From: Candidatus Omnitrophota bacterium
GTDB lineage: Bacteria; Omnitrophota; Gorgyraeia; Zapsychrales; Zapsychraceae
Assembly (NCBI GenBank): GCA_003528115.1
Contig: DOGZ01000017.1
Coordinates: 8,795 to 72,794 of the forward strand
Reading direction: 5' to 3'
Length of the DNA: 64,000 nt
Of this stretch, positions 291 to 44,660 are shown in pieces. The first letter of the stretch is position 1. Each line of letters starts with the position of its first letter. Below the pieces are notes generated by a model. That model was not told the origin of the DNA, did not search any database, and saw only the letters and a program-made list of their open reading frames with translations. The position numbers were made by a program, and so were the translations under genes.

Positions 291-1793
291 TCAATCATCC
301 TGCCAGAGAGAGTAAAAGACCCAAAACAGGACCATGGGCAAGACAGCAAAGAGTATGCGATGCAAAGAAACCTGTAACCACCAGCCAATCTCAAAATACG
401 TGTTTACTAAGTAATAAAAGGTAATGATCAGTCCATAGCTTATCAAGAATCCAGGGAGGATAATAAGCCGTGGATGCAGGCATTTCCATTTACTCAAGAT
501 TAATCCCACCATTGCCGCGAGCCATAGCCCATGCCATTTGTGTTCGAGGTATTCAGGCGCTATTCCGGTATGGAATGATTTGAAGAAAACAAACACATTC
601 CAGAGCGGCATTCCTAATTCAAAAAAATAAAATCCGAGGATCGTTTTAATCCTAAGAGGTGTTATGGGTTTTTCCGCTGAAGAAAGACCGTTAATAAAGG
701 TAATGTTGTCTGGAGCATAAAATAGGTTAAAGACAAGTGCAGGAAGAAACCCGATGAAAGCGCCTGTCAGAAAAGTTCGGATCATAGGAAAGGCACCTTT
801 TATTTTTTCAGGAGGCGCTCCGTTACAGACCGATGGGGTTTTCCAAATGAGAAATGGAACAGCCAAGATTAAAAGAATCAGTGAAGCGATGAGGCCTTCA
901 CTCTTTGTGAAACTTAGTAAACCTGTAAAGAGACCGGCTAGGAGCGCCAACGACGGGCAGTTATCGTGTTTGGCTTTGATCAGACAGAAGAGACTCGCGA
1001 GAAGATAAAATCCCAGCACATGGTCACAATACTGGCTGAGCGATAGTTTATTAAAAAGAGGAAGTGTCAGTAAGACAAGGCTGGGAAGAAACGCGTAGGG
1101 GCTTCGGGTTAAGTCCTTGAGACCGCAGTAGAGCAGTCCTAAAGAGAGCAGGGTGAACAAAAATGAAGTGAAAATTGGCCCATCAAAAGTCGCTTGATTA
1201 ATACAGAGCCAACTCCAGACGTTGAGAAGAGGCAAGAATAACGGGTAATGGGGACTGGATCGCCAAAGAATAGGGCTCAAGAGATTTTTCCAGTGCTCTC
1301 CACCGAGAAATAAAAATTTAGCTTTTAAATTCCAAGTCGACCAGGCGTCCCAGCCGCCATAAACGTAAAAATGGGATTGATACCATAAAGGGAGCACCAT
1401 GAGGATAAGTAACAAGACGGTGAGGCCCGCCTTGAATGGAGAGCATGTGGGAAAAAAGAAAATCTTTTTTGTTTGGAAACAACCCTTAGCCCTCGAGAGG
1501 CGGTGGGGATCTGTGCGTCGTTGATGAATGAACATATTCATAAGAAGAAGGATGAGGAAAAAGAAGATATGAAAGGCAATAACAAAGTAGCGGTGGAGCT
1601 GGTTAAAGACGATAAAACTAATGAATGTCAATTGGGTGCTGACCGCCAGGCCTAAACCAAAAGACAAGATCAATTTAAGGGAAAGAGCGATCTTCCGTTG
1701 GGGTTGAATAAGTAAGGTCAACAACAAATATCCAATGCCTAGGGAAATAAGGTAAGGAAGGTAGGTTAAAAGTGTTGGCAGTAACATCGACAA
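291..1793 (-). CDS. Polytopic GT-C-type membrane glycosyltransferase (PMT_2/ArnT-like), paralog A
   Basis: 500 aa with about 12 predicted TM helices. It has a WDAW..WN.K.KFL loop motif and shares long conserved blocks (YPL.LP..NVW; QY.D.LL.FYLLASL; GLL.F.K.EGL) with the 5116..6519 product. Confidence 0.5.
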   Translation of the reverse strand: MSMLLPTLLTYLPYLISLGIGYLLLTLLIQPQRKIALSLKLILSFGLGLAVSTQLTFISFIVFNQLHRYFVIAFHIFFFLILLLMNMFIHQRRTDPHRLSRAKGCFQTKKIFFFPTCSPFKAGLTVLLLILMVLPLWYQSHFYVYGGWDAWSTWNLKAKFLFLGGEHWKNLLSPILWRSSPHYPLFLPLLNVWSWLCINQATFDGPIFTSFLFTLLSLGLLYCGLKDLTRSPYAFLPSLVLLTLPLFNKLSLSQYCDHVLGFYLLASLFCLIKAKHDNCPSLALLAGLFTGLLSFTKSEGLIASLILLILAVPFLIWKTPSVCNGAPPEKIKGAFPMIRTFLTGAFIGFLPALVFNLFYAPDNITFINGLSSAEKPITPLRIKTILGFYFFELGMPLWNVFVFFKSFHTGIAPEYLEHKWHGLWLAAMVGLILSKWKCLHPRLIILPGFLISYGLIITFYYLVNTYFEIGWWLQVSLHRILFAVLPMVLFWVFYSLWQDD

Positions 1794-1829
1794 CAGCGAA
1801 CTCCATTTCTATATCGAATAGGATTTTCT

Positions 1830-2306
1830 CTAAAAATGTGAACCGGGGTTAGCGAAGATATCTTTCCTTGCAAGGATGACTCCGAACTGATTTCTTCGCC
1901 AAGGGGCCGCTCCAATCTTTTCCATTTCTTGCCAAGCCACCGATTCTTTTGAGCAGAAGAAAATAATATATTCATGCTCCAGATTGTTTAAATCAAGAAT
2001 CGTAGGGGCCAAAATGAATTGGGCATGAGAAAACTGCTTGCTGTGTTCTTGTTGGTTGAGATCGTTATCTGTGTAGTAGCCGACGATTTCCTCCCCCTTC
2101 ACAAACTCTTCCAAGCCTGCAAATTTATAACCGATGTTTTGGTAAGGAAGAACTTTCTTGAACATGTAAACGTCTTTGACGGTCTTTATTAAATCCACGG
2201 CATTGAATAAGGTGATGGCCAACAGGCAAAGGACAAAGAAAAATTTGGAAAAACTCCGAGGTTGTCGAGGGGGAAAGGTCAGTTTTATATTGGATACGAG
2301 TGACAT
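1830..2306 (-). CDS. Small single-pass membrane protein, partner of GT-C paralog A
   Basis: 158 aa with one N-terminal TM helix. It shares the motif Q[FY].LAPTILDLNN..H[EQ][YF][IV]I with the 6519..6938 product and sits immediately upstream of the GT-C gene. Confidence 0.5.
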   Translation of the reverse strand: MSLVSNIKLTFPPRQPRSFSKFFFVLCLLAITLFNAVDLIKTVKDVYMFKKVLPYQNIGYKFAGLEEFVKGEEIVGYYTDNDLNQQEHSKQFSHAQFILAPTILDLNNLEHEYIIFFCSKESVAWQEMEKIGAAPWRRNQFGVILARKDIFANPGSHF

Positions 2307-2327
2307 AGTTAAGTAGAGATAAAATGG

Positions 2328-3050
2328 TTAAAACGGTCGAAGGTTTATTTTCTCTTTCAACATTGCCGTAGGATCATTCCTGTTATTCCGTTGGTCCGTT
2401 TGTTTCAAAGCCTTAAGCTCTGAATAACTTAAAATAAGAAGCAGACGAACCGCGGCATAACCATTTCTTAAATGGGTTGTTATATCATAATGGTCGTGTC
2501 CTGAGCCTAAAAGGATTTGTTTATAAATCATGGAGGTATTTATTATTTTGATGTTAACTTCCGGCTGAGTGGTCAGGGCCTTTTGAAAAGACTCAACGGC
2601 TTCAGAATAACGGCCTTCTTTGTAATCAATGAGGCCAAGATTGTAGTGTGACCAAAAGAAATGAGGATTCAGTAAAGCGGCTTTTTTGTAGGCCTCCAAG
2701 GACTTCTGTTTTTCCCCGGTGTGGTAATAACAAAATCCCAACAGGCCATAGGCCTCAGCCAATTGAGGCATGTAGAGAACCACCTTTTCGTAGTATTGAA
2801 TGCAGCCTCGGAGTTTCTTTTTGTCGGGGACTTCCTGGTCATCCATAATTCCTGTGAGATGGACAAAGGAAGGCAGAAGCCGGTTTAATACGGTGATCTT
2901 GGCCGCGTTCAGGCTTTTAGGATGATCGATCGTTGCGTGAAAGAATACCCAGGCGAACAGATACAAGATCATGACACGGTTTCCATAAAACAGGAAACGA
3001 GTTATCAGAAGACTGTTCTTCATGATTTTCTCAGGGAGAATGTTATCCAT
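2328..3050 (-). CDS. TPR-repeat protein with N-terminal membrane anchor
   Basis: 240 aa. TPR-like repeats are visible (AEAYGLLGFCYYHTGEKQKSLEAYKKAALLNP; SHYNLGLIDYKEGRYSEAVESFQKAL) and there is an N-terminal hydrophobic segment. The start overlaps the end of the upstream gene. Confidence 0.55.
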   Translation of the reverse strand: MDNILPEKIMKNSLLITRFLFYGNRVMILYLFAWVFFHATIDHPKSLNAAKITVLNRLLPSFVHLTGIMDDQEVPDKKKLRGCIQYYEKVVLYMPQLAEAYGLLGFCYYHTGEKQKSLEAYKKAALLNPHFFWSHYNLGLIDYKEGRYSEAVESFQKALTTQPEVNIKIINTSMIYKQILLGSGHDHYDITTHLRNGYAAVRLLLILSYSELKALKQTDQRNNRNDPTAMLKEKINLRPF

Positions 3051-5119
3051 AAAAACAAAAGGCTGATCAATAGGAAATAAAATAGAGCTAATAACACGTA
3101 ATTCATAAGATAAGCCCCAGAAGTGCCGAAATGAAAATAGACGACATTTTCTCCCGGCGGAATCCAGAGGCCTTTAAAAGCAATGTTGGCTCGTTCCACA
3201 GGGACAGGTTGCCTGTTAACAAAGGCCTGCCACCGGCTGTCAAAGGAGTCATTATAAACAAGAAATTTACGAGACGGGAAATTGGTTTTTACTTTTATTG
3301 AGTTCATATTGTAGGACAACAAACGGAATTCGGGGGCGTCTTTTTCAATAACCAAGGCTTCCTTAGGAACGTCCCGGGAATCCGCCCCATCTTCCCCGGA
3401 AGAAGAAACAAAGGCCACGTTTCTTTGTTCAGCGAAAGCTTGCTCGACTTCTTTAAAGCTCAAATTCTTATCGGAAATGTTTTCGGTGCGGTCATAAAGG
3501 ATAAATTTATGACTTAGATATTTTCCAAAAATTGTATAATCCAGCCGGCTGTTGGCCAAGTGGTACCACTTTGTCCCGAAATATATTTTTTGTGTGTGGT
3601 CAGGACTGTGGGTATAACTAAAATCCGTGAACGGCCGGTCATACGTGGATGGCCCCGCGTAGGACGGGGAATTGAGGCTGAGATGATAATAGACTTCTGT
3701 CGCGGGAAGGAAAACGAGCCCTAAGAGAAAGATCAGGGTTGAGATTTCTTTACTGATCAATCTTCCATTGAAGATGAGGATAAAGAAAATAAAACTGAAG
3801 CAAATGGTCAAAAAAGAGGTGAGAGACGCCGTCTTGGTGAAGATTGTAAGGAGAAAGCCAATGAAGTGAACGGCCAGGAGAAAAGCCATCGTTAAAATGT
3901 TTTCTTTTTTTGTGGTTGGACGATGAGTTAGGATTGAACGGAACAATTCCGTGACAAAGAGAATCAATAGAGGGAGAAGGATGAGCCAGAGAAAAAAGTG
4001 TGAATTTCTGAAATACTTAAAAAAGAAGACATGCGTGTATAAATAGGAATAAATAGGTAACTGAGGGGTGGTGATGAGAAAGACGAGGAGGCTCCAGATG
4101 AAAAACAGTAGAAGTTTTTTGTTAATTCTGCTCATCGCCCCGAGGCTGAATATCAGATAGGCAAAGAGGGGGATATATAAGACTTTAAAGTGCATGTCCG
4201 GGAGATTGGATAAAAGATAAGAAAAATATACCTCCTCACCGATGCTCCATTCGGTAATTTTATTTATATTGACCTCGAGGGCGTTTTGAGACGAGGAGGC
4301 GTCTGCTCTAAAGGGCAGCGTGAATTCGCCTCTGGATGATTCGTGAAAAAATGTAATGGAAGGCAGGGCGGATAAGAGAAGGGCCGCCAGGCAGAAGCCC
4401 GCGAAGATTTTGTTGTGGTTGAGAAAAGATAGATTCCTTCGGCAGATGGTTAAGAAATCCTGGAAGAAAATAATAATAAAACAAAAGACAAAAGATAAAA
4501 AGATAGTGGCGAAATAAAAGGGAATATACGTGGTCATGAGAAGCATGAAACAGAAAATCAGGCCTAGAAAAGAATGTTTTTGCGGGTTTCTGGAGAAATC
4601 CACCAGAAAAAAGAAAAACCAAATCATGGGGACGAATATGAGGTGGAGATAGGAGTCGAAGAGATTTGTCCCCAGAGAAGAGAACAGGAGAAGGAGGTAA
4701 GCCAAAAAAGCGGACTTTGTATCCCGAAAAATTAAGTGCGCCAGTTTATAGAAACCAAATATGCCCAGAAAGTAGTATGCGCCTAGAAAGGCAAGATAGG
4801 CCAGCGTGTAGTTGAGGCCCATCCCTTGAAGAATAAGAATAAAACCATAAAAAGGATTATAAGCGCCGATTCGGCGTAAAAAGAAATCGTTAGGCGCGCC
4901 TGATTCCCATGTCGGGTTCCATAAAGGAAAGACCCCGCGGCTCACATTATCTAAAAAGAATTTGATTTGTTCGTAGTAGGATACCGCGTCGTGAACGAGG
5001 GCTAATTTGGCGGAAAGAAAATCGCGGAACAAAAATACCCATAAAAGAAAAGAAAAAATAATGATCCAGTAAGGATTTTTAATATGAGGCAGGAAATGGG
5101 GATGTTTGGGCGGCATCAT
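3020..5119 (-). CDS. YfhO-like polytopic membrane protein (GT-C fold glycosyltransferase family)
   Basis: 699 aa with many TM helices. The N-terminal loop (DAVSYYEQIKFF...GVFPLWNP) is typical of the YfhO family, and there is a large C-terminal extracytoplasmic domain. Confidence 0.5.
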   Translation of the reverse strand: MMPPKHPHFLPHIKNPYWIIIFSFLLWVFLFRDFLSAKLALVHDAVSYYEQIKFFLDNVSRGVFPLWNPTWESGAPNDFFLRRIGAYNPFYGFILILQGMGLNYTLAYLAFLGAYYFLGIFGFYKLAHLIFRDTKSAFLAYLLLLFSSLGTNLFDSYLHLIFVPMIWFFFFLVDFSRNPQKHSFLGLIFCFMLLMTTYIPFYFATIFLSFVFCFIIIFFQDFLTICRRNLSFLNHNKIFAGFCLAALLLSALPSITFFHESSRGEFTLPFRADASSSQNALEVNINKITEWSIGEEVYFSYLLSNLPDMHFKVLYIPLFAYLIFSLGAMSRINKKLLLFFIWSLLVFLITTPQLPIYSYLYTHVFFFKYFRNSHFFLWLILLPLLILFVTELFRSILTHRPTTKKENILTMAFLLAVHFIGFLLTIFTKTASLTSFLTICFSFIFFILIFNGRLISKEISTLIFLLGLVFLPATEVYYHLSLNSPSYAGPSTYDRPFTDFSYTHSPDHTQKIYFGTKWYHLANSRLDYTIFGKYLSHKFILYDRTENISDKNLSFKEVEQAFAEQRNVAFVSSSGEDGADSRDVPKEALVIEKDAPEFRLLSYNMNSIKVKTNFPSRKFLVYNDSFDSRWQAFVNRQPVPVERANIAFKGLWIPPGENVVYFHFGTSGAYLMNYVLLALFYFLLISLLFLWITFSLRKS

Positions 5120-6519
5120 GGCTTTTTCTTTGAGCGTGGATTCGGTGATTCCGGTTTCGTATGTTCAGGCAGACGCCAGAAGGTGTAAAAACAACAAAAT
5201 AGAAGGGAGGGGAGTAAATAAAAGAATATTCTTCCCAGCGTGCTTTTGAGCCGCCAGGCAAGATCGAAATTGGCCGTTGTCAGATAAATAATGATGACGA
5301 CGCCCCCATAAACGATAAAAAATAAAGACAGAATCTTACGTTCTTTATAGAAAAATTTTTGGAACCCGGCAAAAAATATAAAAAGGATAAATATCCATAT
5401 GTGACACCAGCGTTCATGAAGAATCTCGCGCCCCAAGGCGGAAAAAATGAGCCAGACGCCTTGTCCATTAAAAAATCTTAATTCTCTGGCGGCGTAGTCG
5501 ATCAGAATGTCCCGGTTGGGCGGCGCTAAAAACAATTTAAAAAAAATGGTTGTCCAGATTGTCAAGATAAGCCCGATGAATATTCCTTGAAGTTGTTGGA
5601 AGGAACTCTTTTGATCTTTCTCTTTATTCCAAAGAAGATAAGCCACAAGCAAGCTTATCAGGACCATCATCATGACGAGACCTTCATTTTTGATGAAGGT
5701 CAATAATCCAAGGAGCATACCCAGCAAAACAGCCGAGCCGGCGTTTTTTGTCGTAAGCATTATCATGGCGATGATCAAACTGGCTAAGAGGTAGAAGGCC
5801 AGAAGAATATCGGCATATTGGGCGGTGGCACAAAATACATAATAAGGATGCAGGAGCAGGAGGCTGGAGGCCAGAAGGGCGATTTCTTTTTTAATAAATT
5901 GCCTTAATCCGGCGTAAAGCAGGATATTACACGACATAGCAAACAGTACCGCCGTAGTTAAGCTGATCTGTTGAAGCGGAGCTCCGGAAAAGGCGTGAAT
6001 CCACACATTGATAAAAGGGAGAAGGAGGGGATAGTCCGGTTGGGTGTGCCAATGGAGTTTATCAAAGATACTACGCCAGGAATCTCCGCTTAAGACAAGG
6101 AATTTTGTCTTCATATTCCACAAGGCCCACGCGTCCCATTGTCCAAAGGGATGTTTGGAGGCTATAAAGTAAATCACAAAAGACAGAACGGTCCACAGCG
6201 CGCAAGCCGCCAAGTCAATCAGAGGCGGATTATCCCAAGAGACGGGGGGAATAGGGGTATTGTTTTGTTTTTGATGAAAAAAGAGGTTGAGCAAAAATAA
6301 CAACATCAGGAGCCCGAGCATAAAACAGGTTATGGCGGGTGGATTAAACTTGTTGAACAACAGGAAGGACAGAAATGTGACGGCGGCGGAGAATCCCAAC
6401 CCAATACCGACAGCCAGAGGCACGATCAAGAGGAAGGGGATTTTTTTTGAGTTCCGCGTAAGAAGATGAAGGATGAGAAAACCCATGAGAAACGATATAA
6501 AATAGGCCAGTAAAAACAT
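5116..6519 (-). CDS. Polytopic GT-C-type membrane glycosyltransferase (PMT_2/ArnT-like), paralog B
   Basis: 467 aa. It carries the QWDAWALWNMKTKFLVLSGDSW motif and is clearly paralogous to 291..1793. Its 4-nt overlap with the downstream gene suggests translational coupling. Confidence 0.5.
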   Translation of the reverse strand: MFLLAYFISFLMGFLILHLLTRNSKKIPFLLIVPLAVGIGLGFSAAVTFLSFLLFNKFNPPAITCFMLGLLMLLFLLNLFFHQKQNNTPIPPVSWDNPPLIDLAACALWTVLSFVIYFIASKHPFGQWDAWALWNMKTKFLVLSGDSWRSIFDKLHWHTQPDYPLLLPFINVWIHAFSGAPLQQISLTTAVLFAMSCNILLYAGLRQFIKKEIALLASSLLLLHPYYVFCATAQYADILLAFYLLASLIIAMIMLTTKNAGSAVLLGMLLGLLTFIKNEGLVMMMVLISLLVAYLLWNKEKDQKSSFQQLQGIFIGLILTIWTTIFFKLFLAPPNRDILIDYAARELRFFNGQGVWLIFSALGREILHERWCHIWIFILFIFFAGFQKFFYKERKILSLFFIVYGGVVIIIYLTTANFDLAWRLKSTLGRIFFYLLPSLLFCCFYTFWRLPEHTKPESPNPRSKKKP

Positions 6520-8131: not shown

Positions 8132-8140
8132 GGAGATGGG

Positions 8141-8701
8141 ATGGGATATTTCAAACATGAAAAAGCTCTGGTTCACGCCGAGGCGAAGATCGGTGATGAA
8201 ACGAGGATCTGGGCCTTTGCCAATATTCAGGCCGGAGCGGTGATAGGCCGTGGATGTAATATCTGCGACGGCAGTTTCGTGGAAAAAGGGGCCATTGTCG
8301 GGAATTACGTCACCATCAAACACCATGTTTCGGTTTTCGACGGGGTCACCATTGAGGATGATGTCTTTATCGGCTCGAACATTGCTTTTATTAATGATCG
8401 CTATCCGCGCAGCCATCGTAACGATCCCTGGACGCTGGAAAAGACCCTTGTTGAAAAAGGGGCCACATTGGGGAGTAATGCCGTTGTCCTTTGTGGGATC
8501 ACTATCGGAACGTATGCCGTTGTCGGCGCCGGGAGCGTGGTCACTAAAAATGTGCCGGCGTATGCCATTGTCGTTGGGAATCCGGCTGAATTCAAAGGAT
8601 ATGCCTGCCGATGCGGACGAAAATTGGACCAGGATTTAAGGTGCGGCTGCGGGCGGCAGTATGCGTTAAAGGGAAAAGAGTTGAAGGGTATTGATCGTTA
8701 A
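8141..8701 (+). CDS. Left-handed beta-helix (hexapeptide) sugar N-acetyltransferase (WbpD/QdtC/WxcM-C-like) with C-terminal Cys4 tail
   Basis: Hexapeptide repeats run through the protein. It ends in a CRCG-x9-CGCG tail. Confidence 0.7.
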   Translation: MGYFKHEKALVHAEAKIGDETRIWAFANIQAGAVIGRGCNICDGSFVEKGAIVGNYVTIKHHVSVFDGVTIEDDVFIGSNIAFINDRYPRSHRNDPWTLEKTLVEKGATLGSNAVVLCGITIGTYAVVGAGSVVTKNVPAYAIVVGNPAEFKGYACRCGRKLDQDLRCGCGRQYALKGKELKGIDR

Positions 8702-8762
8702 ATGGATTTTGTGAAGCGTGAGGAGATACGGATCAGGCTTTACGGGAAGAGTGGTTAATTTC

Positions 8763-9494
8763 ATGCGACCTGTTCTTGTTTGTCCGATTGCCTACAATGA
8801 GAATGTCAAGCTGAAGAATGCCATTGAGCGTTTCTTGAAAAGCGGCGTGAAAGATCGGGCAGATTATTTGATTATCGATGATGCCTCGGATGACGGCACG
8901 ACGGAGATGATTCAATCATACGCCGGGCAAGGGGTCAGGACCATCAAGCATGCCCAACGGCAAGGCGTGGGATCCGCGATCCGGACGGGGATCAGATTTG
9001 CCCAAAAAGAAGGGTATGACGTGTTGGTTATTATGGCGGGTAATGATAAAGATAATCCCCAAGAGATCCCGCGCTTGATTGATCCTATCATGAAAGAGGG
9101 TTATGATTTTGTTCAGGGATCACGTTATAAAGGGCCTACAGGCATAGGCGGGGATATGCCGTTTTACCGCAAGGTAGCTACCAGGGTGCATCCTTGGCTG
9201 ATGTCTTTGATAACGCGACGGAGATTAACGGATACAACCAACGGTTTCAGGGCTTTTAAACTTGCGTTCTTTGAGGATATACGTATGAATATTGATCAGG
9301 CGTGGTTGAATCAATATGAACTGGAGCCGTATTTGTTGTATAAGGCTATCCAATTGGGATATAAATTTACTGAAGTCCCGGTGACGAAAATTTACCCCGC
9401 GAAGAAATTGGGGTATACAAAGATGAAACCGTTAACCGGCTGGTGGAGCATATTACGGCCGGTTATTTATTTAGGTCTTGGGATCAAGAAATAG
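8763..9494 (+). CDS. GT2 family glycosyltransferase, polyprenyl-phosphate sugar synthase-like (DPM1/ArnC/GtrB-like)
   Basis: GT-A motifs are present: IIDDASDDGT and the DXD region. The start was chosen at the internal ATG (MRPVLVCPIAYNE). Confidence 0.7.
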   Translation: MRPVLVCPIAYNENVKLKNAIERFLKSGVKDRADYLIIDDASDDGTTEMIQSYAGQGVRTIKHAQRQGVGSAIRTGIRFAQKEGYDVLVIMAGNDKDNPQEIPRLIDPIMKEGYDFVQGSRYKGPTGIGGDMPFYRKVATRVHPWLMSLITRRRLTDTTNGFRAFKLAFFEDIRMNIDQAWLNQYELEPYLLYKAIQLGYKFTEVPVTKIYPAKKLGYTKMKPLTGWWSILRPVIYLGLGIKK

Positions 9495-9545
9495 GTGAAC
9501 GTGCAGGCCATTTGTCATGAAACCTTACAGGGAGAGGACAGAACG

Positions 9546-9818
9546 ATGATCAGAAAATATGTGCCATTATTTTTGATTCTTCTGCTAGCCGGGTGTGTGT
9601 ATGAGGGAAAGCCGTTAGGTCATTATATTGAGAATCCGGGTTCTTTAATGGAGGATCCGCATTTTGCGGAGTATCAGAAAAATCGTGATGTCTTGGAGAG
9701 TGAATATTTGCAGAAAAAGATTACTTACGCGGAATATATGGAGAGTAAGAATAAATTAGATGAAAAATACGCCCAAGAAGTTCAAGAGAGAAACGCCAAA
9801 ATAATCTCACAGGAATAA
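9546..9818 (+). CDS. Small lipoprotein
   Basis: The signal peptide carries a lipobox (LLLAGC). Start taken at the internal ATG. Confidence 0.4.
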   Translation: MIRKYVPLFLILLLAGCVYEGKPLGHYIENPGSLMEDPHFAEYQKNRDVLESEYLQKKITYAEYMESKNKLDEKYAQEVQERNAKIISQE

Positions 9819-12220: not shown

Positions 12221-12520
12221 ATGAAGCGTATAGGTGTTGCCGCGAGCAAGATGGCCAAGGGCAATCTTGTTCTTTATAATTGTTATGTAGTGCTTATCTC
12301 ATTCTTATTTTCGTTATTTATTTTAATTGTGGCCGGTTCCAGTGTCGTGTTGGCCATTATCATCTTGGCTTATGTGGCCAATGAAATTATGGGTGTTGAG
12401 TTGGAGAAAAGCTGGTCATCCATCCTCAGTGTCTGCATGGTTTCGTTGACGGTTATTATTGCGGTATTTAATTTGTTTGCCATATCCCAAAATATAAAAC
12501 TCCCTAAAAACCAGGATTAA
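12221..12520 (+). CDS. Small two-TM membrane protein
   Basis: 99 aa, hydrophobic. It lies upstream of the sensor kinase. Confidence 0.3.
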   Translation: MKRIGVAASKMAKGNLVLYNCYVVLISFLFSLFILIVAGSSVVLAIIILAYVANEIMGVELEKSWSSILSVCMVSLTVIIAVFNLFAISQNIKLPKNQD

Positions 12521-12545: not shown

Positions 12546-14858
12546 ATGACTGGAGAAAAAATCAACTATCGTGATTTGATGGATCATTTGCACGATGGGG
12601 TCTGTCGTTGTTCCATCGGTTTCAAAGTGGGTGTTCTTTATATGAATGCCTCTATGGGCAAGATGTTGGGATACGCGGCCAAAGAAATAAGCGGGCTAAA
12701 GGTGGAGGAAATTTTCGTTGAACGCCGGACTTTCCAATCCTTTTATAAAAAAATTTTAGAAGAGGGAACCGTCAGGAATTTTGAAGTGCGTTTTAAGAAA
12801 AAGGAAGGGAAATCTTTTTGGGGATCGCTTTCAGCGGTGGCAATCCGGGACAAGGGCGGTCGCGTCAAATGGTTTGATATGAGTGTCAGGGACATTTCCG
12901 CCAGTAAGAGATATGAAAAAGAATTGATTGAATCCAAAGAACTGTTTCAGACCGTTTTTAATAATACCGCCGCGGCCATTACGGTGACGGATCAAGATGA
13001 AAAAATCGTGGCCTGGAATCCTTATGCGGAAAAATTGCTTCAGATGACAAAGGAAGAACTTTTTAATAAATCCGTGAAAGAGTTGTACCCGCCGGCGGAA
13101 TGGAGAAGATTGCGCAATTTGAACATTCGAAAAAAAGGGATGCTGGCGGATATTGACACCAAAATTTGCAAAAAAGACGGCAGCCTGGCGGATGTCAATA
13201 TTTCTGTTTCTGTTCTGCAGAACTCCGATGGCCAGGTGATCGGCGCTATCGGCATCATCTGTGATATCACTAAACAAAAGGCCGCGGAGAGAAGAATTAA
13301 AGAATCTGAAAATAAAATCCGTGTGATTTTGGATAATTCCGCCGTGGCGATCACGTTGACTGATGAAAATGAAAAAATCATTTCCTGGAACAAGTTCACG
13401 GAGCATCTCTTGGGGATGAAAAGAAAAGATCTTTATATGAAGCCGGTGGACTCTCTTTATCCCGTTGAGGAATGGCAAATGATACGCGCGGAGAATATCC
13501 GTAAATTAGGATCCAAACACCATTTGGAGACCAAGGTTATCAAGAAAAGCGGTGAGATCATTGATGTCGACATATCCGTCAATGTCCTTAAGGACGCCAA
13601 GAATAAGATTGTTGGTTCTGTCGGGATCATGCAGGATATTACGAAACAAAAGCGGTTCCAAGAGATGCTTATTCAGGCTAAATTATCCGCCGAGGACGCC
13701 AACAGCGCCAAGTCGCTGTTTCTGGCCAACATGTCCCACGAGATCCGTACACCGATGAATACAATCTTGGGAATGATTGATTTAACCCTGGATACACCGT
13801 TACTTGAAGAACAAAAGGATAATCTTCGGGTCGCCCGGGAGGCGACGGACAATTTGCTGGGTCTTCTGAATGATATTTTGGACTTGTCCAAAGTCGAGGC
13901 CGGAAAGATCAAGCTCGAGAATATAGAGTTTCATTTGCACAATGTGGCCAGAAGCGTGGTCAAGGGGTTATCGGTGCTGGCCAAAATCAAGCAACTCGAA
14001 TTGATTTTGAATATCCATCCGGATGTCCCTGAGCTTATTGAGGGGGATCCGGTGCGGTTACGTCAGATTTTAATTAATTTGATAAATAATGCGATTAAGT
14101 TTACCCATAAAGGGAAAATCACCACAGCGATAAAAGTTTCTAAGAAGAATCAAGAAAATGTTGAATTGGACTTTTGTGTGACGGATGAAGGAATCGGAAT
14201 CCCTGAGGATAAGCAGGGTAAAATTTTTGAGCTTTTTAGCCAGGCGGATGATTCAACGGCGCGTCACTATGGGGGGACCGGTTTGGGATTGGCCATCTCT
14301 AAACGCCTAGTCGAGATGATGGGCGGTCGAATTTGGGTGGAGAGTGAAGAGCATAAGGGAAGCGCATTTCATTTTACGGGTATTTTTAAAGCGCCGAAGC
14401 CTAATCTTGCCCTTTCTCGTTCCGGGCCAGGGGATACGGATGGAGCGCAGGTCTCCCAAGAACAACTTAAAGATTTGCGTATCCTTTTGGCTGAAGATAA
14501 TGTCGTGAATCAAAAAATCGCCGTGCGTATTTTAGAGAAATATGGCTGGCAGGTTGATGCCGTTGACAATGGACAAAAGGTTATCGATATTCTAAATAAT
14601 AAGCGATTTGATGTGGTTCTGATGGATGCCCAGATGCCTATTCTCGATGGTCTGGAGACAACAAGATTAATTAGAAGGAGTGAACAAAAAACCGGCAAAC
14701 GTATCCCGATCATTGCCCTGACAGCCCGCGCCATGGATGATGATAAAAAGAAATGTTTAGAGGCAGGAATGGACGGCTATGTCTCCAAACCGATAGATCG
14801 GAAAACACTTTTTGAAGAAATTATTAATGTTGTTAAAAAAGGAAGGTCCCATGAGTGA
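12546..14858 (+). CDS. Hybrid sensor histidine kinase (3 PAS/PAC, HisKA, HATPase_c, C-terminal REC)
   Basis: The H-box is SHEIRTPMN, the G-boxes are GTGLGLAI, and a receiver domain follows (LLAEDN...VLMDAQMP). Confidence 0.85.
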   Translation: MTGEKINYRDLMDHLHDGVCRCSIGFKVGVLYMNASMGKMLGYAAKEISGLKVEEIFVERRTFQSFYKKILEEGTVRNFEVRFKKKEGKSFWGSLSAVAIRDKGGRVKWFDMSVRDISASKRYEKELIESKELFQTVFNNTAAAITVTDQDEKIVAWNPYAEKLLQMTKEELFNKSVKELYPPAEWRRLRNLNIRKKGMLADIDTKICKKDGSLADVNISVSVLQNSDGQVIGAIGIICDITKQKAAERRIKESENKIRVILDNSAVAITLTDENEKIISWNKFTEHLLGMKRKDLYMKPVDSLYPVEEWQMIRAENIRKLGSKHHLETKVIKKSGEIIDVDISVNVLKDAKNKIVGSVGIMQDITKQKRFQEMLIQAKLSAEDANSAKSLFLANMSHEIRTPMNTILGMIDLTLDTPLLEEQKDNLRVAREATDNLLGLLNDILDLSKVEAGKIKLENIEFHLHNVARSVVKGLSVLAKIKQLELILNIHPDVPELIEGDPVRLRQILINLINNAIKFTHKGKITTAIKVSKKNQENVELDFCVTDEGIGIPEDKQGKIFELFSQADDSTARHYGGTGLGLAISKRLVEMMGGRIWVESEEHKGSAFHFTGIFKAPKPNLALSRSGPGDTDGAQVSQEQLKDLRILLAEDNVVNQKIAVRILEKYGWQVDAVDNGQKVIDILNNKRFDVVLMDAQMPILDGLETTRLIRRSEQKTGKRIPIIALTARAMDDDKKKCLEAGMDGYVSKPIDRKTLFEEIINVVKKGRSHE

Positions 14859-15201
14859 AGAAGTCATCGATGTGCCAGAGTTTCTAGAAAGAGTCCAGGA
14901 TGATAAAGAGCTTCTTTTTGAGCTGCTTGACATTTTTGTCGGGGATTACCGGGGAAAAAGGAAATCGCTCGGCGAGGCTATTAAGAAAAATGATTATGAA
15001 GAGGTCAGGATGATTGCCCATTCGTTAAAGGGGGCTTCGGGGAACGTTTCGGCCAAGGCCCTTAGGCAGACTTTTATCAAGATCGAAGAGATGAGAAAGC
15101 AAAATGACTATACAGGCGCAGAAGAGACATTAAAAACCATGGATCAAAGGTTTGAAGAATTGTTGAAACGGATCAGTGTCTTGAAAGAGGAATTAAAGTA
15201 A
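14851..15201 (+). CDS. Hpt histidine phosphotransfer protein
   Basis: Contains the HSLKGASGNVSA Hpt motif. The ATG overlaps the kinase stop. Confidence 0.7.
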   Translation: MSEEVIDVPEFLERVQDDKELLFELLDIFVGDYRGKRKSLGEAIKKNDYEEVRMIAHSLKGASGNVSAKALRQTFIKIEEMRKQNDYTGAEETLKTMDQRFEELLKRISVLKEELK

Positions 15202-15260
15202 AGAAAATGGCTTTAATTGAATTGCTGAATCGAGGGATTTAAATCCTGCCCTCTGAACCC

Positions 15261-17210
15261 TTGACTTCAGTGAAAGATTCATTGATATCCAAGAAGTGGC
15301 TTCCTATTCGTTTATTGAGTTTTCTTCCCATTGCCCTTATCTTATTTTTTTTAGGAGGGACAACCTATTTTTTTGCCGTTTTTCATCCCTTCGTTCATGA
15401 TGACGTCGTTTTTATCCAAACGAATCCGCGCATCGCAGAATTCAATCTGAAAACAATTTTTTTCACGACAGTGGCCGGTCATTCCGACACGGCTCTGATC
15501 AATGATTATTACCGTCCCTTATTGGAAGTGTTTTACAGGCTTCAATATCAAATATTTCGTCTCAATCCCCATGGTTACCACCTGATGAATATCCTGGTTC
15601 ATATTCTCAACAGTGTGATGGTGTTTCATATTATTTCCTTTATGGGAAAAAGGAAGAGGGACATGGAGAGCCTGACGGGCAATTCGTCAGAGGATTTCTT
15701 GAATCAGGATACGTTATCAACGGCTTTGACATCCTCCGGGGTTCTTGGATCGTTCGCCGGGAACGGATTAGCTTTAGGCGTTGCCGTTCTTTTTCTTGTC
15801 CATCCGGTTCAATCCGAAGCCGTCGCCTGTATTTCCGGGATTTCCAATCTATTATTTGCCTTCTTATGTTTACTGAGTTTTTATTTATACCTTTTGACAA
15901 AAGAAAACATGGCCGACCTTCGATCGCGCAGAGCGCTTTATTTGTATGGAGGTTCTTTGATGAGCTTTCTTTTAGCTCTTGGGGCCAAAGAGCAGGCCGT
16001 TGTCCTGCCGGTGCTTATTGCTTTGTATGAAGTATGTTTCCCCGCGTCTCATCGAGAGAAATGGGGCCGTCCCCTTCTGCAATGGGCGGGGTATGGGGTG
16101 GTGCTGGCAGGGTATTTCATTTTCAGAAAAACTATGGTGGGTTTTAATCCGGGTTCTTTTCTGAATTTTAATGATGAGTTTTGGTTACGGATAGAATCTA
16201 TTCCGCGGACGCTTCTTATGTACGGGTCTCTTATTTTCTCCCCGCGGGATTTACATTACTATCGGAGTACCGACATCCTTCAACCCTTTGCAGGGCCTCT
16301 CGTGGGCCTGCTGGGTGTTCTCACGCTTATCGCGATGATTATTTTTTATGTTCCAGTAACCTGCCGGCGCGTACTTATTTTTAGTATGGGCTGGTTCCTT
16401 ATTTCTCTTTTGCCAACGTTGAATATTCTTCCTTTGATCAATGAATATTCGTACATTTTAACCGCGGAGCATTTTTTATATCTTCCTATGATAGGGATCG
16501 TCTTATTTGTGTTGACTGTGGGGCAATATGGATTGAAGCGGATGCGTCCCAAGATAGGTTCTTGGGTGGGGCCCGCGGTGCTTGGCGTGATAAGTTTTAT
16601 GTTTATGACTTCAACGATAGAACAAAATACGTATTGGCGAGGAGAGATTCCTTTGTTCGAAAGGACTCTGCGCTTTGAGAAATTAGGACGTGTCCATATT
16701 TTGCTGGGCAAGGCGTATTATTTTAATGGGCAATTGGATAAAGCGATCGAAGAGTTGGAAAAGGCGCTGCATATTATCCAGGGGTATATCGCGAAGGTTA
16801 AAGACGAGAGGGTATTAAATTATTATAGAGGATTGGTTAAAGGGGTCTATTTTGATCTTGCCCATTGTTATGAAGGGCTGGGGGCCAGGACCCAATCGCT
16901 GAATCAGTATCTGAAGGCCTCGGCGATCGATCCCAACGACGGCGTTTTACAAAATAATATCGGGGTCAATTATCTTCTCCTTAAGGAGATCGATAAAGCG
17001 ATGGAACATTTTCAAAAGGCGGTTTCTTTAGACTCAAATGATTTGATGGCCATGAATAATTTGGCTTTGTGTTATCTGGAAAGGAAAGAAGAGGATAAGG
17101 CCGAGCAAATTTTAAGAGAAATCTTAAAGAAGAAACCTCAAGACCTCTCAGCGAGGAAGAATTTGGAGAGATTGCTTTCCAGGAAGCAGACCATAGAGAA
17201 GAACCCATAG
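15261..17210 (+). CDS. TMTC-like GT-C glycosyltransferase: DUF1736 polytopic N-domain plus C-terminal TPR repeats
   Basis: The first loop has a DD motif (HPFVHDDVVF). The HPVQSEAV signature of DUF1736/TMTC is present. The C-terminal part has about 6 TPR repeats. The start codon is TTG or GTG and uncertain. Confidence 0.6.
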   Translation: MTSVKDSLISKKWLPIRLLSFLPIALILFFLGGTTYFFAVFHPFVHDDVVFIQTNPRIAEFNLKTIFFTTVAGHSDTALINDYYRPLLEVFYRLQYQIFRLNPHGYHLMNILVHILNSVMVFHIISFMGKRKRDMESLTGNSSEDFLNQDTLSTALTSSGVLGSFAGNGLALGVAVLFLVHPVQSEAVACISGISNLLFAFLCLLSFYLYLLTKENMADLRSRRALYLYGGSLMSFLLALGAKEQAVVLPVLIALYEVCFPASHREKWGRPLLQWAGYGVVLAGYFIFRKTMVGFNPGSFLNFNDEFWLRIESIPRTLLMYGSLIFSPRDLHYYRSTDILQPFAGPLVGLLGVLTLIAMIIFYVPVTCRRVLIFSMGWFLISLLPTLNILPLINEYSYILTAEHFLYLPMIGIVLFVLTVGQYGLKRMRPKIGSWVGPAVLGVISFMFMTSTIEQNTYWRGEIPLFERTLRFEKLGRVHILLGKAYYFNGQLDKAIEELEKALHIIQGYIAKVKDERVLNYYRGLVKGVYFDLAHCYEGLGARTQSLNQYLKASAIDPNDGVLQNNIGVNYLLLKEIDKAMEHFQKAVSLDSNDLMAMNNLALCYLERKEEDKAEQILREILKKKPQDLSARKNLERLLSRKQTIEKNP

Positions 17211-17226
17211 AAGTGAGGTGACAGGG

Positions 17227-17907
17227 ATGTCCTTTGTGAATTTTATAGTTTTGATGGCGATCGTTTTGATTTTGATCCTTCTGGGTGTGCTTTTTTATTG
17301 GCCTATAGAAAAGAAAGACGCGAAGAAAAAGAAAATATCCAAAGAGGAAGAGCCGAAACAAAAAGACTGGCAGCAGACAGCGCAGAGGCTTGAGAAACAT
17401 ATTCATGCGTTGCGCGGTGAGTTGGAGATCTCTCAGCAAAAAGAAAAGGCGGGGGAGAAGCAGATTTTGATCGAAAAGGCAAAAAATAAGAAATTAGAAG
17501 AAAAAGTGGCGCAGGAGAGGGGTTGGCACGAGACAGAGCAGAAGGAGATGGATAAAAGAATTAAAGAGATGGGGGATTTGAAAGAGGAATTCATGAAACT
17601 TCAGGGGATTTTTACCGCTGAACATGCCGTCAATTTGCGTCAGGAGCGCGAGTTAAAAGACCTCAAAAGAGAACGGGATTCTCTTAATGACCAAAGAAGA
17701 GCGCTTGAGGCAGAAAACGCGCAGGCAAAAGCGGAGTTGGGGAATTATAAAAAAGACCTGAGTCAATTCAAACGGGAAAATATGGAGTTGATGAAAAAGA
17801 AAGAAGATACCGTTTGGATCGCTAAATCGGACTATGAGAAACTTCAGCAGTTAGTCAACGAAAAAGATAAAGAATTACAAAGGATGAAGAGAGAGGCAAA
17901 CGAATAA
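17227..17907 (+). CDS. Membrane-anchored coiled-coil protein
   Basis: One N-terminal TM helix followed by a long K/E-rich heptad region. RBS GTGAGG upstream of the ATG. Confidence 0.4.
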   Translation: MSFVNFIVLMAIVLILILLGVLFYWPIEKKDAKKKKISKEEEPKQKDWQQTAQRLEKHIHALRGELEISQQKEKAGEKQILIEKAKNKKLEEKVAQERGWHETEQKEMDKRIKEMGDLKEEFMKLQGIFTAEHAVNLRQERELKDLKRERDSLNDQRRALEAENAQAKAELGNYKKDLSQFKRENMELMKKKEDTVWIAKSDYEKLQQLVNEKDKELQRMKREANE

Positions 17908-17938
17908 TAAGAGGGAGAGTATAAGTTAAGATTGAGAT

Positions 17939-17966
17939 AAAATTCATTTTATGTATAATGAAATTG
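17939..17966 (+). promoter_or_regulatory. AT-rich palindrome (Fur/PerR-box-like) overlapping a TATAAT upstream of ferritin
   Basis: AAATTCATT-n9-AATGAAATT is a near-perfect inverted repeat with TATAAT in its centre. Confidence 0.3.
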
Positions 17967-18047
17967 CGTTGAGGGCCTATGAAGTCTGCGCAGGTTGGCG
18001 GACAAAAAATATATCCCACTACTCAAGGATGGGGAGAGGAGATAGAG

Positions 18048-18545
18048 ATGTTAATCAAAAAGATTGAAACCGCGTTACTTGATCAAATTTCCAAGGAGGC
18101 TCATGCCTCCAATTCCTATTTAGCTATGGCCAGTTGGTGTCAGGTCAAGGGGTTCAGAGGAGCCGCGTCTTTTTTCTTGACGCAATCCGAAGAAGAACGA
18201 CAACATATGCTGAAATTGATAAACTTTGTCAATGAAAGCGGCGGTCAAGGGATTATTCCGGCCCTCCAGGAGCCTCTAGCAAAATACAAATCTCTTGTGC
18301 ATGCCTTTGAAGTGGCCTTTGAGCATGAGATCGCCACAACAAAATCCATTCATGAACTTGTTGATCTGACGTTCAGCTCCAAGGATTACGCGACGTTTAA
18401 TTTTTTACAATGGTATGTCGCTGAACAGCATGAAGAGGAAAGTTTGTTTCGTTCGGTGCTTGACCTTATTCATATTGCCGGGGATGAACAAAGGAATCTT
18501 CTTATCGTGGATAATGAAATTGCTAAGATTAGAATTAAAGCATAA
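18048..18545 (+). CDS. ftnA: Bacterial non-heme ferritin
   Basis: Ferritin-like di-iron residues are present and the N-terminus is typical. RBS GGAGAGGAG upstream. Confidence 0.8.
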   Translation: MLIKKIETALLDQISKEAHASNSYLAMASWCQVKGFRGAASFFLTQSEEERQHMLKLINFVNESGGQGIIPALQEPLAKYKSLVHAFEVAFEHEIATTKSIHELVDLTFSSKDYATFNFLQWYVAEQHEEESLFRSVLDLIHIAGDEQRNLLIVDNEIAKIRIKA

Positions 18546-18628: not shown

Positions 18629-19840
18629 TTGATATTAGATGATTTTCAGTTTGCCAAACGGACGGACTGGCCATTGGCATCCAATCAGCTTGGTCATGTC
18701 CTGGAGCAACTGCGTAAGGAGAATATTCCTGTCATTGATTTGACTGAGTCTAATCCGACCCAAGGCGGATTTGTTTATCCTGAACAAAAAATTTTGGAGG
18801 CGCTGGGAGATGTCAAGAATTTAACGTACACTCCCGCTTCCGAAGGACTTTTAAAGGCCAGGGAGGCCGTCAGCCGGTATTATCAAGAGAAAAGTTTGGA
18901 TGTGCCGCCGGAGCGGATTCTTTTAACTTCAAGCACATCTGAAGGATATTCTTATCTTTTCCGTTTATTGGCTAACCCGGGTGAGCGTATCCTTTTTCCT
19001 CAACCGAGTTATCCTTTATTCCAATTTCTGGTTGATTTAAATGACATAGAAATGGTTAATTATCCTCTTTATTATGCCAAGGGCCGTTGGCAAATGGATT
19101 TTGAGCGGTTGGAAGAAGGGATAGATATTAATACAAAGGCCATTGTTATCGTTAACCCGAATAATCCGACAGGATCGTTTTTACGCGCGGAGGATATCAA
19201 GGTCTTGAATGCCATTTGCCGTAAGCGCCGCCTGGCACTTATCTGCGACGAGGTTTTTGGGGACTATGTTTTGAATAACCGGGAGAATTATATCAGTCTG
19301 GCCGGCAATGAAGAGGCCTTGACTTTTGTTTTAAGCGGAATTTCCAAAACACTTGGACTTCCGCAGATGAAATTATCTTGGATCGTGATGAGCGGTCCGC
19401 GCGATTTGGTGCAAGCCGCAAGAGAACGCTTGGAGATTATTTCCGACACGTATCTTTCGGTTAATACCCCGGTGCAACACGCGTTGTCAACATGGTTGCC
19501 TTTAAGACAAGAAATTCAAAAGGATATTTTGAACCGTGTTCAACAAAATTACGCGTTTATTCAACATCTGAGTGAGGACTCCTTATATTGCCGATTGCTT
19601 CACATCGATGGAGGCTGGTATGGGATTTTAAGAATACCCGATTGGCATAGCGAAGAGGCATGGGTCCTTTTGTTTTTGCGAGAGGAGCACATTTTAGTCC
19701 ATCCAGGATATTTCTTCGATTTTGAGGAGGAAACCTATATTGTCCTCAGTTTGCTTTGCCCCGTTGATGATTTTCAGAAAGGGATAAGGCGTCTTTTTAA
19801 GAGGGTAGAACGCGAGAATCTCAAAAACCTTAAGGCTTGA
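18629..19840 (+). CDS. PLP-dependent aminotransferase class I/II
   Basis: NPNNPTG motif, plus the SGISKT PLP-lysine region. Confidence 0.75.
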   Translation: MILDDFQFAKRTDWPLASNQLGHVLEQLRKENIPVIDLTESNPTQGGFVYPEQKILEALGDVKNLTYTPASEGLLKAREAVSRYYQEKSLDVPPERILLTSSTSEGYSYLFRLLANPGERILFPQPSYPLFQFLVDLNDIEMVNYPLYYAKGRWQMDFERLEEGIDINTKAIVIVNPNNPTGSFLRAEDIKVLNAICRKRRLALICDEVFGDYVLNNRENYISLAGNEEALTFVLSGISKTLGLPQMKLSWIVMSGPRDLVQAARERLEIISDTYLSVNTPVQHALSTWLPLRQEIQKDILNRVQQNYAFIQHLSEDSLYCRLLHIDGGWYGILRIPDWHSEEAWVLLFLREEHILVHPGYFFDFEEETYIVLSLLCPVDDFQKGIRRLFKRVERENLKNLKA

Positions 19841-20468: not shown

Positions 20469-20873
20469 ATGCTCCGAATGATGCAGAATCTCAAGATATT
20501 GATGGCTGATGATGAGCCGGACGTTCTAGCAGTTATGGCCAAGAAAGTGGCGTCCGAAGGATATACGGTCATAACGGCCAGCGATGGGCAGGAGGCGTGG
20601 GAAAAAATTCAAAAGGAAATTCCAGACATCATTTTGCTGGACCTGACGATGCCAAAGAAAGACGGGTTTCAGGTTTTGAAAGAGTTGAGAGAAAATCCTC
20701 CCTCCAAGAAGTGGCAGCCGGTGATTATTATTTCAGCCAAGCGGGAATTGGAAGATATCCAAAAAGGTTTAGGCATGGAAGCGGATCACTATATCACCAA
20801 ACCGTGTTCGATAGGCGATGTTTTAAAGGCGATTAAACTGATGGCCAGTCTTATTCCACACCGGGAAATGTAA
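20469..20873 (+). CDS. Single-domain response regulator (CheY-like receiver)
   Basis: ADDEPD...ILLDLTMP...K receiver motifs. The start may be 9-12 nt downstream. Confidence 0.7.
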   Translation: MLRMMQNLKILMADDEPDVLAVMAKKVASEGYTVITASDGQEAWEKIQKEIPDIILLDLTMPKKDGFQVLKELRENPPSKKWQPVIIISAKRELEDIQKGLGMEADHYITKPCSIGDVLKAIKLMASLIPHREM

Positions 20874-42218: not shown

Positions 42219-42267
42219 CATCTAAATTGATTGTCCGTATAATCAGTCAAATTTGAGGGGCCAAATC

Positions 42268-44604: not shown

Positions 44605-44629
44605 AATTTTTGAGGAATCCTCAGGTAAA

Positions 44630-44660
44630 AACTCTTTAGTGTTCTAAACATTAAAGAGTT
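44630..44660. repeat. 9-bp inverted repeat AACTCTTTA-n13-TAAAGAGTT downstream of bamA
   Basis: Read directly. An AT-rich flank follows. Confidence 0.4.

Follow-up and report, generated by a model that had tools for sequence, protein, structure and literature searches.

The gene analyzed here lies on the forward strand of a 64,000-nucleotide stretch of contig DOGZ01000017.1 from a Candidatus Omnitrophota bacterium (hereafter the window) and encodes a multi-pass membrane glycosyltransferase of the GT-C type fused to a C-terminal TPR domain. From profile comparisons, we identify the protein as a genuine, though divergent, relative of the animal TMTC protein O-mannosyltransferases. On balance, we think it likely that the protein is an inner-membrane enzyme which draws its sugar from a polyprenyl-phosphate donor and O-glycosylates proteins selected by the TPR domain, and that its gene is transcribed as a unit with its neighbors. 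Prokaryotic proteins combining a TMTC-like GT-C domain with TPRs are already known as a kind, and this gene is one more member. The original prediction, made from the sequence of the window, had called it a bacterial TMTC-like GT-C protein with TPR repeats; this is upheld by profile-profile alignment, by a family hidden Markov model (HMM), by the predicted GT-C fold and by the predicted periplasmic placement of the TPR domain, but not by a scan for the DUF1736 family (Table 1). The open reading frame comprises 649 codons counted from TTG 15261. The deposited protein, P0001, is a 100% match of 646 amino acids from a Candidatus Omnitrophica metagenome-assembled genome (MAG), where it is named 'hypothetical protein'. 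It begins at the in-frame GTG 15270, and residues are numbered accordingly throughout. Its N-terminal ~455 residues are hydrophobic and multi-pass.

To establish the relationship to TMTCs, we compared the family profile with the N-domains of animal TMTCs, as aligned in the supplement of Eisenhaber et al. 2021 (PMC7801869). Alignment of the two families by hhalign gave a probability of 99.9% (E 7.4e-34) over 387 aligned columns at 21% identity. The family HMM scored 8 animal TMTCs at 98-114 bits (E 1e-26 to 1e-31 with the database size set nominally to 1e6), with alignments extending from transmembrane helix (TM) 1 to TM11. Applied to the three other polytopic GT-C candidates of the window, the same HMM gave 7.6 bits for one and no reported match for two. 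Single-sequence BLASTP against the TMTCs yielded 23-26% identity with E-values down to 6e-11.

The DUF1736 label of the original prediction was not borne out. An hmmscan of the whole protein against Pfam-A returned TPR families alone, with neither DUF1736 (PF08409) nor PMT_2 among them, and Pfam and NCBIfam scans together likewise returned TPR families alone; the N-terminal 474 amino acids by themselves matched no Pfam family at E<=10. For the same scan we trimmed 21 diverse members of the family, at 45-53% identity to the query, to their N-domains; none matched PF08409 at E<=1, and a single member matched GT-C_AftD. With the same tool, all 8 animal TMTC N-domains matched PF08409 at E<=1e-31, showing that the missing match is real and not due to insensitivity of the tool. 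Three of these 8 TMTC N-domains matched PMT_2, which is similar to the behavior of the family (3 of 21). Formally, the lack of a DUF1736 match is an outcome that the original prediction had named as speaking against it. We attribute the miss to the divergence of external loop 4 and to the loss of RxD, DW and DNPA, and not to absent homology. Thus, a protein can be kin to TMTCs even where a DUF1736 scan finds nothing.

Inspection of the seven TMTC motifs (M1 to M7, as defined in PMC7801869) revealed which elements the family has kept and which it has replaced. M1 is kept: the FVHDD of the first external loop, already singled out as a DD motif in loop 1 by the original prediction, is identical to that of TMTC1, with D44 invariant and D45 at least 90% conserved over 44 family sequences of 41-52% identity (~45%). 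Among the 120 best homologues, DD occurs within the first 120 residues in 105, and in 103 of these in a PFVHDD context. The role presumed for the pair is drawn from the GT-C enzymes reviewed in PMC7801869. M2 (SHKSYRP), also in external loop 1, is reduced to YRP(L) in the family sequence NxYYRPLLE, the S, H and K having gone. M3, the RxD within GRAD of external loop 2, is lost, and the family carries an invariant G-x-S-N there, which in P0001 reads GISN after HPVQSEAV. M4 is kept, since KEQ is invariant and aligned to TMTC KET/KEQ, with the final T of KE(T/Q)xxT replaced by V/L; in TMTC models this motif contacts phosphate and metal (PMC7801869). M5, the DW within LCYDW of external loop 4, is lost: the Asp of DW is a metal ligand in TMTC models (PMC7801869), and the aligned LHYYR has no acidic residue at this place. 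DNPA, the opening of the TMTC DUF1736 segment, is absent from the same loop of the family. M6 (PxxP, in TMTC PFIPASNLFF) has a similar counterpart in TM9 of the family, LLPxLNIxPL. In M7 (TMTC AERVLYMPSMG), for which the family has AEHFLYxPxxG, the E and Y are kept and the Arg is replaced by an invariant His. Because of the changes in RxD, DW and the Arg of ERxxY, the chemistry and the donor may differ from those of TMTCs; by comparison of these sequences, the loss of RxD and DW in particular suggests a different sugar or metal dependence.

The original prediction had also taken HP.QSEAV as a signature of DUF1736. The motif is present and is a genuine TMTC hallmark, kept in the family form HPxQ(S/T)EAV and outside the M1-M7 numbering; the pattern HPxxx[ED][AS]V was matched by 117 of the 120 best homologues. 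However, it is not part of the segment that Pfam calls DUF1736 (PMC7801869, Table 3), lying ~130 residues before it (TMTC1 fragment 132-139 versus 263-335).

We further characterized the protein by structure prediction. The full-length AlphaFold2 model, built from a 44-sequence alignment, had a mean pLDDT of 85 and a pTM of 0.85. A Foldseek search of the PDB with this model was swamped by TPR proteins, and the N-domain was therefore modeled (pLDDT 78, pTM 0.85) and searched separately. Its structural matches include ArnT, AftD, AftA, AftB, PIG-U and GAB1, and Foldseek yielded the same set; as modeled, the N-terminal multi-pass domain adopts the GT-C fold. At the sequence level, a search of the PDB with the single sequence found TPR proteins alone, and with the N-domain profile nothing meaningful. 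The N-domain is 471 amino acids long in this genome compared with ~430 in the orthologues, most of which lack a stretch of ~40 residues, rich in Ser, Thr and Asp, that is inserted into the first cytoplasmic loop here (residues ~128-165, ~15651-15764) and is predicted to be disordered (pLDDT<50).

The membrane topology was assessed from the charge distribution, averaged over the 44 sequences. Each of the six predicted cytoplasmic segments is net positive (14.9 K+R in ~70 residues), whereas each of the five external loops is net zero or negative (9.8 K+R in ~180 residues). As the chain starts inside and crosses the membrane 11 times, an odd number, the TPR domain is placed in the periplasm. The orientation that the original prediction required of the TPRs is thus supported by prediction, through the 11-TM model and the positive-inside pattern. 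The conserved polar motifs (FVHDD, YYRP, HPxQxEAV, KEQ and EHFxY) all fall in loops predicted to be periplasmic. TPR matches in Pfam span residues ~477-640, and this region matches solved structures of consensus TPRs and of the OGT TPRs. Ten helices follow TM11 in the AlphaFold2 model, equivalent to about 5 hairpins; C-terminal TPRs are therefore confirmed, though not the ~6 repeats first counted.

Of 77 orthologues, 76 have the GT-C domain joined to a TPR domain. Separately, we observed some orthologues of ~490-520 amino acids in which most of the TPR domain is missing (L006/L022 6001-7566, which is P0111, and P0024, P0039 and P0070). Their contigs are long and show the same gene context, and NCBI names them 'glycosyltransferase family 39 protein'.

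Animal TMTC1-4 (CAZy GT105; Pfam TMTC_DUF1736) are among the characterized systems closest to the protein. Both have an 11-TM GT-C domain followed by non-cytoplasmic TPRs, and they have FV(H/F/Y)DD, (S/Y)YRPL, HPxxxEAV, KE(T/Q), P(A/T)xN(L/I) and AE(R/H)xLYxPxxG in common. However, identity is only 21-26%, and the Omnitrophota protein does not match PF08409, lacks RxD, DNPA and DW, has a His in place of the Arg of ERxxY and carries about 5 TPR hairpins in a 190-residue domain. TMTCs transfer mannose from dolichol-phosphate-mannose to Ser/Thr residues of cadherin-type domains. Since the bacterial protein faces the periplasm and not the lumen of the endoplasmic reticulum, its carrier cannot be dolichol-phosphate-mannose as such, and bacterial substrates cannot be cadherins.

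Full-length TMTC homologues with transferase and TPR domains occur in many poorly characterized prokaryotes, such as AMJ42_05695 of a Deltaproteobacterium (PMC7801869); the present gene differs from these in belonging to a distinct Omnitrophota orthologue group. This is a vast superfamily: in our profile search, 100,028 cluster representatives passed E<=1e-3, of which 12,891 also passed E<=1e-30. In the open literature searched, we found no functional study of bacterial TMTC-like or DUF1736 proteins, the remark in PMC7801869 aside. The earlier statement that bacterial TMTC homologues are uncharacterized holds to this extent, but a protein of the same architecture has been studied, Pseudomonas aeruginosa TfpW. 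This pilin O-arabinofuranosyl transferase is required for pilin O-glycosylation, has an essential DDX motif and has been modeled on ArnT. By its description, TfpW resembles the Omnitrophota protein in having 646 amino acids, a cytoplasmic N-terminus, 11 TM helices, a DDX motif and a periplasmic C-terminal TPR domain. It differs in genomic setting: tfpW directly follows the gene of its substrate, pilA, whereas the gene studied here has an Hpt gene upstream and a TM/coiled-coil gene downstream in nearly all of 80 loci. A proline-rich chain-length motif is described as a feature of TfpW. PMT_2-type GT-C enzymes (ArnT/GT83, Pmt/GT39) are alike in the GT-C fold, an Asp in the first external loop and, as presumed for the Omnitrophota protein, a polyprenyl-phosphate sugar donor. 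However, P0001 has no PMT_2 match, the PMT_2 proteins of the window score 7.6 bits or go unreported against the family profile, and ArnT and bacterial Pmt have no TPR domain.

TMTCs are recently recognized animal protein O-mannosyltransferases with disease links. To this picture our analysis adds a delimited Omnitrophota orthologue group with full-length TMTC homology, a record of the ligand motifs that were kept (DD, YRP, KEQ, E-x-x-x-Y) and replaced (RxD, DW, Arg to His), and a fixed genomic neighborhood across ~80 species-representative genomes. Together, the group definition, the motifs and the neighborhood yield testable hypotheses on donor, substrate and partners, within the limits that Omnitrophota are uncultured and that the link to signaling discussed below comes from gene order alone.

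If the protein works as other GT-C enzymes do, it would take a single sugar from a polyprenyl-phosphate carrier at the periplasmic face of the membrane and pass it to an acceptor, whose hydroxyl group would be the target of the first Asp in the DD pair. Lys and Glu of loop 3, together with His and Tyr of loop 5, would hold the phosphate, by analogy with the GT-C biochemistry in PMC7801869. The donor might be made by a GT2 enzyme whose gene belongs to the same conserved block and lies ~6 kb upstream. The TPR domain would most likely select periplasmic or outer-membrane protein substrates, resulting in protein O-glycosylation as with TMTCs and TfpW; by this analogy, the acceptor is most likely a protein. 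Several points weigh against this account. Most characterized bacterial GT-C enzymes act on lipids or glycans, and the activity, donor and acceptor of this family are read across from other GT-C enzymes. No Pfam GT-C family matches the protein itself (N-domain scan, E<=10), and PMT_2 (PF13231) was reached by just 3 of the 21 family members, with a best E-value of 5.5e-6. Three of the TMTC ligand motifs are not conserved as such: the family has xSN for RxD, YY/YR for DW and a His for the Arg of ERxxY. The GT2 gene is ~6 kb off, with unrelated genes between, and its family matches are below curated cut-offs. Finally, no candidate substrate gene, such as one for a pilin, is adjacent to the GT-C gene.

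The alternative that survives best, though we consider it distinctly less probable, is an active GT-C enzyme whose acceptor is a lipid or glycan, either lipid A or lipopolysaccharide core, as with ArnT, or a cell-surface polysaccharide, with the TPR domain docking to an envelope-assembly machine. ArnT, AftD, AftA and AftB are among the structural matches, the TMTC sugar/metal motifs M3 and M5 are not kept, and the window is rich in envelope genes (BamA, SurA-like, LpxD, LpxC/FabZ, three GT-C candidates and a UDP-GlcNAc 3-dehydrogenase-like protein), all of which would fit such an acceptor. Two observations nevertheless favor protein O-glycosylation: of the GT-C proteins tested, the TMTC protein O-mannosyltransferases are by far the nearest to the family, and the fusion of GT-C and TPR domains is the architecture of TMTCs and TfpW, both of which act on proteins.

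To get a broader picture of the genomic setting, we collected 80 loci by a pattern-limited scan of species-representative genomes, plus six orthologue contigs; neighbor counts cover the genomes with enough flank. All 80 loci come from Omnitrophota or from MAGs labeled 'uncultured Planctomycetales', and they form an orthologue group with its own conserved neighborhood. Full-length and near-full-length group members score >320 bits, compared with 260-275 bits for the nearest other families. In these nearest out-group families, which also combine GT-C and TPR domains, PF08409 was found in 0 of 10 representatives. An Hpt gene was found upstream of 0 of 3 nearest out-group members on contigs, a weak control since these contigs are short. 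The one locus without any of the neighbors described below, L038, is a second paralogue, and the same MAG has the canonical L007. As for the deposited names, L008, L010, L013 and about 25 other loci appear as 'uncultured Planctomycetales bacterium', which probably reflects an error of taxonomic labeling in a single assembly pipeline.

The conserved gene order begins with a GFO/IDH oxidoreductase, a hexapeptide acetyltransferase, GT2, a small protein, a SpoU methylase, an HD_3 hydrolase and an M48 peptidase. It continues with a 99-amino-acid 2-TM protein, the hybrid kinase (not in all genomes), Hpt, an optional insert (AsmA-like, 83-amino-acid and DUF1318 proteins) and the GT-C/TPR gene, and ends with the coiled-coil protein, ferritin in some genomes, an aminotransferase, a deaminase and a bare REC protein. 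As the original prediction had noted, the gene follows a multi-PAS hybrid kinase and an Hpt protein, both of which are upstream on the same strand. The Hpt gene precedes the GT-C gene on the same strand in 72 of 73 genomes and is directly adjacent in 58, the kinase is upstream in 50 of 58 and the 99-amino-acid 2-TM gene in 43 of 46. Downstream, the coiled-coil gene is found in 69 of 72 (adjacent in 62) and the bare REC gene in 32 of 50, whereas ferritin occupies its position in just 6 of 50 loci. The whole ~14 kb block is about equally conserved, as shown by HD_3 (44/46), SpoU (41/46) and the aminotransferase (43/50). In the 8 of 58 genomes where the kinase is missing (L003, L006, L007, L014, L015 and others), the 99-amino-acid gene adjoins Hpt, and the 99-amino-acid, Hpt, GT-C/TPR and coiled-coil genes stay in a row, leaving an orphan Hpt. 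Hpt is upstream but not adjacent in 15 of 73 genomes. L001 (2198-5963) and L005 (4317-6016) have 3-4 extra genes between Hpt and GT-C, encoding an AsmA-like protein of ~338 amino acids, a protein of 65-83 amino acids and a DUF1318 protein, to which L001 adds a TPR protein of 685 amino acids. In about 14 loci, L016, L018 and L025 among them, tblastn places Hpt 1.4-2.6 kb upstream, a spacing that suggests similar inserts there.

We inspected the gap between Hpt and the GT-C gene for signs of separate transcription, which the original prediction had named as evidence against co-regulation. The scan found no terminator-like site in this gap; one weak promoter-like site (a 9/12 match, 15181-15208) was found. 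The RNA of 15190-15285 is predicted to fold at -24.5 kcal/mol (z = -3.4 versus shuffled controls) into two hairpins, one spanning the Hpt stop codon and the other covering TTG 15261 and GTG 15270 with its 3' arm. The gap hairpin has no U-tract, and the gaps before the GT-C gene in orthologues, at 0-24 nucleotides, are too short to hold such a structure. Co-transcription with Hpt is plausible, since the gap has no terminator, the orthologue gaps are this short and Hpt is upstream in nearly every genome; the linkage of the two genes is an old one. On the other side, the coiled-coil gene begins 7 nucleotides past the GT-C stop codon, and in Omnitrophota genomes its start often overlaps or abuts this stop. 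A near-consensus sigma-70-like promoter (11/12; TTGAGA, 16-nucleotide spacer, TATAAT) is located at 17932-17959 (+), after the coiled-coil gene and before the ferritin gene (17979..18545). From these sequence features, the 99-amino-acid, kinase, Hpt, GT-C/TPR and coiled-coil genes are probably co-transcribed.

The original prediction went further, proposing that envelope glycosylation is signal-controlled. We regard it as improbable that the phosphorelay of hybrid kinase, Hpt and REC controls glycosylation, be it via shared operon expression or by binding directly to the enzyme or its coiled-coil partner. In its favor, the relay and enzyme genes share a strand with short gaps and no terminator, Hpt, the kinase and the coiled-coil partner recur at the frequencies given above, and Hpt stays beside the enzyme even where the kinase has been lost. 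However, this adjacency is unspecific, as unrelated housekeeping genes of the ~14 kb block are as conserved. The block encodes no DNA-binding regulator, and the nearby response regulator is a bare REC without an output domain. Moreover, the kinase is missing from the 8 genomes mentioned above, the 15 genomes with non-adjacent Hpt have other DNA between Hpt and the enzyme, and neither the L038 paralogue nor the three nearest out-family members examined, which lie on short contigs, have an Hpt or kinase neighbor. Thus, gene order does not establish control by the relay, the claim found no support beyond adjacency, and signal-controlled glycosylation is speculation that we favor weakly.

A stronger form of this idea appears more doubtful still. 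Here, the five-gene unit (2-TM, kinase, Hpt, GT-C/TPR and coiled-coil) would be a phylum-wide envelope module in which a phosphorelay lacking any membrane sensor is tied physically to periplasmic protein glycosylation or to TPR occupancy by substrate; the relay may gate the enzyme, or the enzyme and the coiled-coil protein may together be the envelope sensor of the relay. Such a module, if real, would connect a TMTC-type glycosyltransferase with two-component signaling for the first time. A catalytically dead GT-C scaffold like PIG-U, with the periplasmic TPRs as a sensor or adaptor that provides, for instance, envelope input to the soluble kinase, is very improbable. In its favor, non-enzymatic GT-C folds exist and two of them, PIG-U and GAB1, turned up in the structural search; the kinase is also without a sensing domain in the membrane or periplasm, and some TMTC ligand motifs are altered. 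Against it, FVHDD, YYRP, KEQ and EHFxY are the most conserved positions, invariant or nearly so over the 44 sequences, which is the pattern of an active enzyme.

Table 1 Features of the gene, its protein and its neighbors in the window (residues as in P0001).
Feature	Position	Strand	Basis or remark
TMTC-like GT-C glycosyltransferase fused to TPR	15261..17210	+	uninterrupted open reading frame, translation
Predicted GT-C catalytic membrane domain, residues 1-455, 11 TM helices, N-terminus cytoplasmic	15270..16634	+	
DD motif M1, D44 D45 in FVHDD, external loop 1	15399..15404	+	presumed catalytic Asp pair
HPVQSEAV, residues 178-185, external loop 2	15801..15824	+	equivalent to TMTC HP(I/V)HTE(A/C)V
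KEQ, residues 240-242, external loop 3	15987..15995	+	corresponds to TMTC M4 KE(T/Q)
External loop 4, residues ~290-340, positional equivalent of DUF1736 segment	16137..16289	+	divergent
EHFLY, residues 400-404, external loop 5	16467..16481	+	corresponds to TMTC M7 ERxxY
Predicted periplasmic TPR domain, residues 456-646, ~5 helical hairpins	16635..17207	+	Pfam, structures, model
Hpt-to-GT-C gap, 59-68 nucleotides	15202..15269	+	no terminator; stable hairpin
Small 99-amino-acid two-TM protein, head of unit	12221..12520	+	translation, hydropathy; no family match
Hybrid histidine kinase, soluble, 770 amino acids: 3 PAS, HisKA, HATPase_c, REC	12546..14858	+	Pfam, NCBIfam
Hpt phosphotransfer protein, HSLKGASGN histidine motif	14851..15201 (open reading frame from 14812)	+	Pfam Hpt E 3.9e-11
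Downstream 229-amino-acid protein: N-terminal TM helix, then coiled coil	17218..17907	+	no curated family
Single-domain response regulator (bare REC), candidate phosphorelay end point	20469..20873	+	Pfam Response_reg E 4.5e-28
GT2, polyprenyl-phosphate-sugar-synthase-like	8718..9494	+	NCBIfam matches below curated cut-offs
PMT_2 GT-C protein	291..1793	-	Pfam PMT_2
Tgl/PilW-like TPR protein	2328..3050	-	
13-TM protein, weak YfhO match	3020..5119	-	
PMT_2 GT-C protein	5116..6519	-	Pfam PMT_2

Among the neighboring genes, the likely start codon of Hpt, ATG 14851, overlaps the stop codon of the kinase (ATGAGTGA). The downstream 229-amino-acid protein has a lysine-rich juxtamembrane stretch and then ~190 residues of charged coiled coil. 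It was considered as a periplasmic substrate of the enzyme and rejected, because the lysine-rich stretch right after the TM helix predicts a cytoplasmic coiled coil.

The GT2 protein has its best NCBIfam matches with dolichyl-phosphate hexose transferase (7e-19), PpgS (4e-17), AglJ and ArnC. It is part of the head of the conserved block at 7118-9818 (+), which also encodes a UDP-GlcNAc 3-dehydrogenase-like oxidoreductase, a NeuD/PglB/VioB-type N-acetyltransferase and a 107-amino-acid protein. These genes could supply a modified N-acetylhexosamine donor for GT-C enzymes; no DegT-type aminotransferase was seen near them. The 107-amino-acid protein after GT2 was rejected as a GtrA-like flippase, having one hydrophobic segment and no family match. 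Similarly, the class I/II aminotransferase at 18629..19840 is unsupported as a sugar aminotransferase, since it matches amino-acid aminotransferases.

By hydropathy, four open reading frames of the window, this gene included, have at least 9 TM segments. They comprise two PMT_2 proteins, one weakly YfhO-like protein and the TMTC-like protein itself, and counting the latter as the fourth GT-C-type protein in the window was thus about right. The other three belong to a divergently oriented cluster of envelope-glycosylation type (291-6519, minus strand), which also holds a 158-amino-acid single-TM protein. Further downstream, 42253-47807 (+) encodes BamA with five POTRA domains, LpxD and a fused LpxC-FabZ, and by these genes the organism is a diderm with lipopolysaccharide.

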